Shown here piece after piece: positions 36,903 to 38,130 of a stretch of 64,000 nt of DNA (its first letter is position 1; every line of letters begins with the position of its first letter). This DNA comes from a virus. Its lineage: Duplodnaviria > Heunggongvirae > Uroviricota > Caudoviricetes. Under the pieces are notes generated by a model. The model had not been told where the DNA came from. It did not search any database and worked only from the letters and a program-made list of their open reading frames with translations. The stretch spans positions 146,331 to 210,330 of the IMG/VR virus record IMGVR_UViG_3300005535_000017. One strand, written 5' to 3'. Position numbers and translations under genes: made by a program.

Positions 36903-38130
36903 GGCCTCTCTTTCGGATTTTGTCTTGTCTTCAGCCCAAGACATTCTTTACGTCTTGTAGTTAAGACACGAAGACAGATGTAGTCAAGGGCTCAAGACAA
37001 GAAAAGACCGAAAAGCGACATACGAAGATCCGTTCGAAAAATACTCCTTCGAGCGAGCGGATTTCTTTTTCCTGGAAGTACCTGAAGAGGGAGCGAGGGA
37101 TTTCTTGTAAGGCGCGGAAATGCTTCAGGAAGTAGTCCTTCTTCTTCACTGACGCTAGATAGACCTCTACCGCCTCTTCCCCTCTACTATTTCAACCGCT
37201 CGCCAAGTTTCTACCCGGCGAGGGAGAAGTAGAGCTGATCGGCCCTCGTCGTTCTCCGCACCGGACACCCCTTTCGAGGCATGTCGCCGTCGTGCTTCTG
37301 AAGAACGCTTCCGTACCGAACGCAGGAACAGGTCAGTGAAGCCTATTTCCGTTCTGGTGTTCGGTCTCGACAGGGCCGCTTGCCCCTCCCGCTCGGGGGA
37401 GGATTTTTCGAATCAGGACGCGGATGGGCGGTGTTCCCCAGCGAGATCTACTGGCAGTCACGGTCGTCAAATCGTGCATCGTCAGGGTTCATCGCTGCGC
37501 CGCCCCTCTGGGAATGAGACCCGCCTGGGAGCTCCGTGCTACGTCTGCACGTCCGACCGAACTCTCCCCGGTACGTTCACCGGCTCGCTGGCGACTACTA
37601 AAACAAAGTCCGCACGACCGATGCCGATCTTGCCCCATACAGTAGGAGAGTCAAGTTGACGACCGCCTGCTTGTCTGGCAGTCTGATGTTGCGACGCGTC
37701 CTGCGCGTTCGTACCTGGCTGTCAGACCACGACTGACGAAAAGACACTTCGTGGTGGTGCCACTCGGCGGTGGGCAGGCAGAAGGCTCTCGGTTGACACC
37801 GAGGGCCTTTTGTCTTTCTGATTCTCGCGAGATCCGAGATACTCGAAAAAAGTAGTTGACGTTATTTCCGCGCCTGCGTAGACCTATAAACAGGATCAAG
37901 ACAGTGCTGACCAGGACCTCGCATATGACGACCAAAGGGACGAAGCGCTCGGGCGCCTCGCTCATTGGCTATTCGTGCGATCGCCAGGAGCAGCCGAGCA
38001 TCCGCCTCTTCGCCGGTCATCTGGCCAATTGGGAAGGTGCCGGCCCCTAGAAGGACTCCCGATAAGGGAACTTGCTAGAGGGTCGGCAGACGAGAGTCTC
38101 CCGGCCCTCTTCGTTTTTGGAGGTGCGGAT
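36903..38130. other. 1.2 kb non-coding region preceding the tRNA array
   Basis: AAGACA-type repeats 36905-37010; TTGACG 37856-37861 with TAGACC/TATAAA downstream; hairpin plus T-run 38066-38118. Confidence 0.4.

Follow-up and report, generated by a model that had tools for sequence, protein, structure and literature searches.

A divergent control region with a putative translated-leader attenuator and a large structured RNA upstream of the tRNA array of a soil jumbo phage

In a 64,000-nucleotide (nt) stretch of viral DNA (positions 146,331 to 210,330 of the IMG/VR record IMGVR_UViG_3300005535_000017; hereafter, the window), an array of transfer RNA (tRNA) genes is separated from a leftward gene by a long intergenic interval at 36900-38143. 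We find that this interval is a divergent control region filled with RNA genes. Only one of its modules, here termed module C (37846-38119), was present in all 11 lineages for which DNA was recovered, and it always lay directly before the gene for tRNA-Trp; the modules upstream of it were optional and varied between lineages. We lean, with some reserve, towards reading module C as a transcription attenuator built around a translated leader open reading frame (ORF), which would gate expression of the tRNA array. Further upstream, module B (37107-37640) is, judging by the covariation of its paired bases, a structured RNA of ~530 nt on the same strand as the tRNAs.

The phage, its relatives, and the intergenic region

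Homologues of rIIA, rIIB, and thymidylate synthase were encoded in the window, which identify it as phage DNA, and its source is a large T4-like soil jumbo phage without a close cultured relative. Metagenome contigs from soil and rhizosphere, 139-210 kb and longer, encoded proteins identical to those of the window. A blastn search with 36700-38300 against 50,697 phage records returned no DNA match, scans of IMG/VR with the flanking proteins and with DNA patterns recovered nothing related, and a DNA pattern scan of GTDB genomes gave no match. Twelve IMG/VR loci matched by one DNA pattern were chance matches, and one match from the metagenome scan (L041; related loci and lineages are given L numbers) lay inside a coding region and was likewise discarded as chance. 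Relatives were gathered by three routes: homologues of the flanking 257-amino acid (aa) protein, which yielded six further clusters at 33-71% identity; a DNA pattern built from the most conserved block; and a profile built on the region's predicted small peptide, which yielded 15 clusters. Together, these routes gave the 11 distinct lineages compared here. Gene order was kept in the relatives, with a small gene, a ~170-200-aa gene, a ~250-aa gene, and NUDIX on one side, and tRNA-Trp, Thr(CGT), Gly(GCC), Tyr, Lys, Lys, and Gly on the other.

The interval is bounded on the left by the start of a minus-strand gene at 36899, whose start codon (CAT at 36897-36899) and the complement of its upstream ribosome-binding site were kept in relatives, and on the right by the start of the tRNA array at 38144. 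All ORFs within it are short. The longest (107 aa, 37336-37659) was ruled out as a gene by 1-nt indels inside it in the 98.9%-identical strain L007, a rejection that holds under any genetic code. A preliminary description of this DNA had seen no credible ORF here, which stands for about 1.1 of the 1.24 kb but overlooked a conserved ORF of 47-51 codons at 37904-38050.

Between lineages, the intergenic DNA was 72-82% identical, whereas the flanking 257-aa protein was only 33-41% identical, such that this seemingly empty DNA is more constrained than the neighboring gene. We are very confident that it is functional non-coding sequence. Conservation was modular, with modules gained and lost. L016 had an interval of ~620 nt and L042 one of ~300 nt, and the genes upstream of it were co-directional in L043 and L044. 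The L035 locus (1-670) combined modules B and B2 (the latter a candidate small RNA, below) that were nearly identical to the window type with a module C that was 87% identical to the L015 type, a mixture that points to lineages having recombined at the borders of modules. One more conserved intergenic module, B0 (..GAACTGCACTC..CTTATCGC..GAGATTTTGCA..), was missing from the window lineage and present in five relatives (L013 at ~8800-9070, L015, L016, L017, and L031 at 2080-2185), from which the intergenic region emerges as a mosaic of interchangeable RNA-like modules. Two complementarities, 37110-37121 with 37864-37875 and 37417-37431 with 37994-38008, occurred in the window only, were not conserved in relatives, and were not built upon. 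An Rfam search of 36850-38300 (E<=10) matched only tRNAs, and the intergenic regions of four related loci (E<=0.001) likewise gave nothing other than tRNAs.

Architecture and conservation of module C

Module C remained beside the array where the other modules were missing (L042) and where the upstream genes were co-directional (L043, L044). Its elements were as follows.

37846..37884, plus strand: promoter of the leader/tRNA unit, with an A-tract, -35 TTGACG (37856-37861), a 17-nt spacer, and -10 TAGACC (37879-37884)
37904..38050, plus strand: leader ORF of 48 codons with a GTG start, AGGA at 37892-37895, and the end ...NWEGAGP-TAG
37930..37970, plus strand: hairpin H1 inside the leader ORF, apex GCGC-UCGG-GCGC at 37945-37956
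38012..38050, plus strand: regions 1 (38012-38022) and 2 (38035-38050, with the UAG stop), mutually pairable, 92% of cells paired over the 11 lineages
38039..38087, plus strand: putative antiterminator, pairing region 2 GCCGGCCCCUAG (38039-38050) with region 3 CUAGAGGGUCGGC (38075-38087) and enclosing a hairpin at 38057-38069
38077..38119, plus strand: intrinsic terminator with a 14-base pair (bp) stem at 38077-38110, loop GAGA, and U-run at 38111-38119 (UCGUUUUUG), ending 24 nt before tRNA-Trp

The combination TTGACG-17-TAGACC, which had been proposed as a promoter from the window alone, occurs once in the window, and comparison supported the proposal. The A-tract, TTGAC, the TA of the -10, and the 17-nt spacing were invariant across the 11 lineages and the spacer sequence varied, which is the footprint expected of a real promoter. 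The -10 took the forms TAGACC, TAAACC, TAGATC, TATCCC, and TACGAC, with TA invariant and C as the last base. A TATAAA that had been noted beside it was not conserved in relatives.

The leader ORF begins 13 nt past the likely transcription start (near 37891). Its start codon (GTG or ATG) and frame were kept in all 11 lineages, with a length of 47-51 codons and an invariant end, ...A-G-P-TAG, and AGGA preceded the start in most of them (absent in L017 and L043). Gene callers predicted the ORF in many contigs, and the resulting 16 peptide clusters shared Q-P, A-G-L, W, and A-G-P. Distances between invariant anchors within the ORF differed by multiples of 3 only (35/32, 31/28, 17/14, 23/20), corresponding to at least five independent 3-nt indels, and this held also for lineages found without reference to the ORF; 1- and 2-nt indels were common just outside it and in module B. 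Variable columns were spread over the three codon positions of the leader as 19/23/22, versus 153/136/196 for the neighboring 257-aa gene in the same lineages, and identical residues were specified by identical codons in 80-97% of cases (pairs including the window), versus 38-61% in that gene. A frame that is kept without codon periodicity, and with synonymous sites frozen, implies that translation is selected and not the peptide alone. The constraint appears to act largely on the RNA, as expected of a regulatory leader ORF.

At the RNA level, the basal helix of H1 carried compensatory changes, H1 showed a change of C-G to U-A in L031, and the 1:2 pairing formed in most full-length minimum-free-energy (MFE) folds. 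The 2:3 helix comprises 12 bp that include the stop codon and was 92% paired in the 11 lineages; L016 had a perfect 12-bp duplex, produced by C>U in region 2 together with the loss of one base in region 3. Region 2 was the most invariant stretch of module C despite its three synonymous sites. The hairpin and T-run that had been noticed before the first tRNA are real and conserved, with 5 of the 14 terminator pairs being compensatory and C>U changes in the 3' arm giving G.U pairs only on the plus strand.

Folding of the segment from region 2 through the U-run gave the 2:3 fold in 11/11 lineages (-35 to -40 kcal/mol), and masking of region 2 gave the terminator fold (-29.5 to -36 kcal/mol), the former being 3-9 kcal/mol more stable than the latter when region 2 was free. 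For the full leader as free RNA, the terminator was the minimum-energy state in 8 of the 11 lineages, region 2 then being able to pair with 38012-38022. We also shifted a 29-nt ribosome footprint along the leader ORF in one-codon steps and obtained the same profile in all 11 lineages: the antiterminator was predicted only with the A-site about 10-16 codons before the stop (x-F-A-G-x), and the predicted outcome was the terminator when the ribosome sat at the stop or anywhere on the last ~8 codons. The invariant Trp codon was considered as a sensor, given that tRNA-Trp is the first gene of the array, and was rejected, since masking by a ribosome at that codon predicts termination.

A model for gating of the tRNA array

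In the model that we favor, RNA polymerase would start near 37891 from the sigma-70-like promoter, and a ribosome would load at AGGA/GTG and translate the 48-codon leader while the polymerase proceeds. The ORF's final 12 nt (GCC GGC CCC UAG, in region 2) would be able to pair with the 5' arm of the terminator. A ribosome at the ORF end would hide region 2, the terminator would form, and an RNA of ~230 nt would be released 24 nt before tRNA-Trp. The invariant Pro-stop ending may make the ribosome linger and so prolong the masking of region 2; a C-terminal proline is a slow context for peptide release. A stall about 10-16 codons earlier (around ..FAG..) would leave region 2 free to capture region 3, with read-through into the 44 tRNA genes. 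The net logic would be that poor translation elongation raises tRNA synthesis, with the array being induced when translation is limiting.

Because the terminator lies only 24 nt from the first tRNA, the module C promoter is the natural driver of the array. A leader ORF and a strong terminator, the latter faced by a competing helix, lie between it and the tRNAs, so it would be gated and not a simple promoter. The earlier idea of a host RNA polymerase promoter driving the tRNA island is supported by comparison as far as the promoter goes and is incomplete as to its control.

Several points weigh against this model. It draws on comparative and thermodynamic reasoning, with every mechanistic step read from sequence, and 4 of the 11 lineages were found via the called peptide, such that those four are biased to intact ORFs. 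A consensus scanner finds no sigma-70 site at the module C promoter, a result attributable to a -10 that ends in C and not in the canonical T (the sigma-70 -10 hexamer being TAnnnT). The 1:2 helix is almost invariant and has no covariation support, and the 2:3 helix is nearly invariant as well, lacking classical two-sided covariation apart from the L016 change. Moreover, the free RNA folds to the antiterminator in only 3/11 lineages, and GCCGGC-like palindromic segments permit several alternative pairings. None of the 16 leader peptides contains a run of codons for a single amino acid, and the C-terminus of the peptide (FAG.LPTDWEEAGP) is well conserved, so the peptide may itself have a function. 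Finally, no promoter could be identified for RNA B.

Among the alternatives, the leader might act independently of translation, in the manner of a riboswitch or of a protein- or tRNA-bound leader, with a factor bound to the conserved upstream hairpins deciding which of the two, 2:3 helix or terminator, is formed, and the ORF being incidental. This would agree with conservation at the nucleotide level, without codon periodicity and with invariant blocks (GACGAAGCGCU..GGCGCC, UAUUCGUGCG, CAGCCGAGCA), and with the compensatory changes in H1, one of which causes the non-conservative replacements R>C and A>I in L031. We nevertheless think it unlikely: all indels between anchors are of exactly 3 nt, including those in lineages found independently of the ORF, every lineage has a start codon (with AGGA upstream in most, L017 and L043 being without it), the stop codon always sits at the 3' end of region 2, and no known riboswitch or T-box model matches.

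It is also rather improbable that the ORF at 37904-38050 simply encodes an ordinary small protein, expressed from its own promoter and followed by an ordinary terminator, the array being served by leaky read-through or by other promoters. Its prediction in many contigs, the common residues of the 16 peptide clusters, and the conserved C-terminus are what such a gene would show, but its synonymous sites are essentially frozen and its codon positions vary equally, unlike those of the neighboring gene, and in every lineage its last four codons pair with the terminator arm over 12 bp. The 24 nt between terminator and tRNA-Trp, furthermore, leave no room for another promoter.

We assign a low probability to the proposal that the ~230-nt terminated leader, RNA B, and B2 matter more as trans-acting RNAs, for example by serving ribosomes, RNase P, or tRNA-modifying enzymes as decoys or scaffolds, than cis control does. 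The free leader RNA does fold to the terminated form in 8/11 lineages, B and B2 are discrete conserved structured units, and ROOL and GOLLD sit similarly near phage tRNA islands (PMC12286853). However, a frame-preserved ORF and a stop codon within the terminator-competing helix would be left unexplained, and trans action is compatible with the attenuator, not exclusive of it.

Comparison with known leader systems

The attenuator proposed here resembles those of the trp, his, leu, thr, and pheA operons in its promoter, short ORF, predicted mutually exclusive helices, intrinsic terminator, and regulated genes. As in those amino-acid attenuators, a ribosome that has reached the stop codon would cover the segment able to disrupt the terminator, and the predictions are that an upstream stall leads to read-through and completed translation to termination. 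It differs from them in its target, 44 phage tRNAs in place of biosynthetic enzymes, and in its long leader (47-51 codons), which is constrained mainly at the RNA level. The trp, his, leu, and pheA leaders, moreover, have runs of regulatory codons, a defining feature of trp-type attenuators that the module C leader lacks. No Rfam leader family matches module C (E<=10).

T-box leaders are likewise cis-acting RNAs that tie tRNA or translation status to a choice between terminator and antiterminator. However, they recognize uncharged tRNA by direct binding, contain no translated ORF, and control aminoacyl-tRNA synthetase genes as well as amino-acid genes, and no T-box match was found in the region (Rfam, E<=10). 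The leader may also resemble regulatory nascent peptides of the TnaC/SecM type: its C-terminus is conserved, with an invariant Trp and a Pro right before the stop (..W-E-x-A-G-P-stop), and the time a ribosome spends at the ORF end would, by prediction, settle whether transcription continues, but the motif spacing is different. TnaC acts via Rho and not through an intrinsic terminator. A limited literature search found no description of a leader-peptide attenuator before a tRNA operon or a phage tRNA array, which is not proof of absence.

Module B and a candidate small RNA

Upstream of module C, two further RNA-like units could be delimited on the tRNA strand.

37107..37351, plus strand: 5' part of module B, present in the window, L017, L032, and L046 lineages and 76% identical with L017
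37352..37640, plus strand: core of module B, two structured RNA domains, with a hairpin at 37385-37402, then AUUUUUCGAA, and the invariant ACGCGGAUGGGCGG
37656..37684, plus strand: candidate promoter of module B2, TTGACG, 17 nt, and CAGTCT preceded by TGG; a weak assignment
37721..37822, plus strand: body of the candidate B2 small RNA, folding z-score -4.3, present in the window, L007, L035, L015, and L031 lineages

The preliminary description had recommended comparing relatives for conserved structure, and it was here, in the middle of the region, that the comparison uncovered structured RNA with compensatory pairs. In the core (37352-37632), RNAalifold applied to six sequences gave 73 pairs with 94% of cells paired. 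Sixteen of these pairs were compensatory, compared with 1-5 when the partners were slid by 1-3 columns, and 0/500 shuffles reached the observed score. With the divergent L046 added, 16 of 57 pairs were compensatory, several of them with three pair types, and invariant G.U pairs place the RNA on the plus strand. In the 5' part, the hairpin CUCUACU...AGUAGAG stays paired although its sequence changes in L032. The MFE z-scores (-0.6 for module B and -1.8 for the leader) were uninformative, and covariation was therefore relied on. Module B was absent from about half of the related lineages. In the window lineage only, a 28-nt complementarity (82%) connects 37033-37060 (UUCGAAAAAU) with 37385-37412 (AUUUUUCGAA), pairing an unconserved upstream segment with the most conserved RNA B hairpin; it was not built upon.

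ROOL and GOLLD are large structured non-coding RNAs of phages and prophages that often lie beside tRNA islands, and in GOLLD the 3' region is conserved and the 5' region variable (PMC12286853). Module B resembles both in being a large multi-helix phage RNA on the tRNA strand beside an array, and it resembles GOLLD in that its 3' core is conserved and its 5' part is present in only some lineages. Neither covariance model matches module B at E<=10, however, which excludes its membership in either class, and no resemblance in sequence or structure was detected.

We regard module B2 (37656-37822) as a candidate small RNA. Within it, the loop ACCACGA of a GUCAG/CUGAC hairpin is complementary to UCGUGGU at 37749-37755, and the module ends in a strong intrinsic terminator of its own (stem 37784-37807, U-run 37808-37820). 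At the position equivalent to the candidate B2 promoter, L031 has TTGACA-16-TAAAGT.

Module A and the candidate leftward promoter

The left end of the interval is occupied by module A (36900-37020), which overlaps the control sequences of the leftward genes.

36780..36899, minus strand: first gene of the leftward operon, a 39-aa Lys/Ala-rich protein, MPRGVYDR..., taken from the ORF list and called in near-identical contigs
36907-36942 and 36983-37018, no strand assigned: arms of module A, an imperfect 36-nt palindrome with 8 AAGAC/GTCTT motifs, kept in 8 lineages
36959..36987, minus strand: candidate leftward promoter with -35 TTGACT (36987..36982), a 17-nt spacer, and -10 TTAACT (36964..36959)

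The cluster of AAGACA repeats that had been reported from the window is real. Eight AAGAC/GTCTT pentamers lie in 36922-37008, or 8 copies in 120 nt versus 0.34 expected (background 2.8 per kb), and elsewhere in the 64 kb no 120-nt window holds more than 4. Eight lineages have the cluster, with between 3 and 8 copies. Two GTCTT-N6-AAGAC palindromes were located (36927-36942 and 36952-36967), one invariant in the 5' untranslated region (UTR) and another overlapping the leftward -10, with further copies flanking the -35. The candidate promoter lies ~50 nt upstream of the leftward start codon. Its -10 is TTTACT in most relatives, and AGTCAAG and TAGT.AAG within it were invariant in 6 lineages; the consensus scanner made no call at this site. 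The palindromes are probably operators of the leftward promoter rather than origin iterons, to judge from where they fall. They would be comparable to the sites of operator-controlled divergent phage promoters in that, at the leftward promoter, palindromes of the 5-N6-5 type overlap both the -10 and the 5'UTR.

An iteron-type replication origin at 36905-37020, as the earlier description had entertained, is very improbable: the motif is strongly over-represented, the cluster is kept across lineages, and G+C dips modestly (46-48% at 36900-37200 versus about 58% nearby, which a promoter region would also explain), but the repeats are of only 5-7 nt, in both orientations and irregularly spaced, where iteron origins have several regularly spaced direct repeats of about 17-22 bp, the palindromes overlap the leftward -35, -10, and 5'UTR, the region has no DnaA box, the cumulative GC skew has its minimum at about 8-10 kb with no inflection at 37 kb, and L043 and L044, in which no divergent gene is present, do not have the cluster.

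The first two leftward genes (36780-36899 and 36276-36779, both on the minus strand) encode Lys/Ala-rich, histone-tail-like proteins that both start with MPRGVY(D/E)R, and neither had a Pfam or PHROG match. These MPRGVY(E/D)R proteins are candidates for binding the adjacent GTCTT-N6-AAGAC palindromes.

The tRNA array and other features of the window

The first gene of the array was recovered with ARAGORN at a relaxed threshold.

38144..38212, plus strand: tRNA-Trp(CCA), first gene of the array, with a weak tRNA-like Rfam match

It has a reduced 3-bp D-arm and one A.G mismatch in the acceptor stem, was missed by default ARAGORN, and was found at the same place in L015, L016, L017, and L018. With this gene added, the array comprises 44 tRNAs and not the 43 of default ARAGORN, and it starts at 38144 and not at 38217, that is, 73 nt earlier. 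Unusual ARAGORN anticodons in the array were Ile(TAT), Tyr(ATA), and two Leu(AAG). Among the elements at 44978-45065 (plus strand), 45699-45790, and 47333-47405, one tRNA-like element was tRNA-Sec-like (40.9 bits) and is probably tRNA-Ser(GGA), as in L013. HNH endonuclease genes lay between tRNA genes, both in the window array (via L001 gene calls) and in L031 (2830-3430), where one lies between tRNA-Trp and tRNA-Thr, and these insertions mark the array as a target of mobile endonucleases.

Between tRNA-Thr(GGT) and tRNA-Arg(ACG), a 228-nt segment (42833-43060, plus strand) matched bacterial RNase P RNA class A. The match (46.6 bits, E 1.8e-13) was below the gathering score of 100 and spanned the whole model, with 7 nt replacing 105 model positions, such that the specificity domain is missing; GAGGAA..UC and AACAAAACC were kept. 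The same RNA was present in L001 and, with a ~340-nt insertion, in L013. On these features, 42833-43060 may be a phage-encoded minimal RNase P RNA inside the tRNA array. Module B was considered as a specificity domain for it and rejected, there being no RNase P model match on module B.

Elsewhere in the window, a 931-aa protein with a Major Vault Protein shoulder domain (58054-60849, minus strand; E 1.4e-23) and a 474-aa protein with a WGR, PARP regulatory, and PARP catalytic architecture (49789-51213, minus strand) form a eukaryote-like pair that is unusual for a phage.

Implications for phage tRNA arrays

To our knowledge, tRNA arrays are frequent in large phages and how they are switched on is largely unknown. 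A leader-ORF attenuator before such an array, if true, would amount to a feedback loop from translation to tRNA supply. Its logic is familiar in bacteria, and its target, a phage tRNA array, would be new within the limits of our literature search. In a broader and more tentative picture, the phage would sense its own translation capacity through the leader ORF and open the 44-tRNA array only on ribosome stalling, for instance if host tRNAs run short, fit the codon usage of the phage poorly, or are cleaved by anticodon nucleases, with the same locus also carrying a new class of ~530-nt tRNA-island RNA unrelated to ROOL and GOLLD. Module B, as a large RNA supported by covariation, lying by a phage tRNA island and unrecognized by Rfam, bears on the role of RNAs of the ROOL/GOLLD type. 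The attenuator, if true, would bear on why phages keep tRNAs at all, whether for codon matching or for escape from host defenses that target tRNAs.

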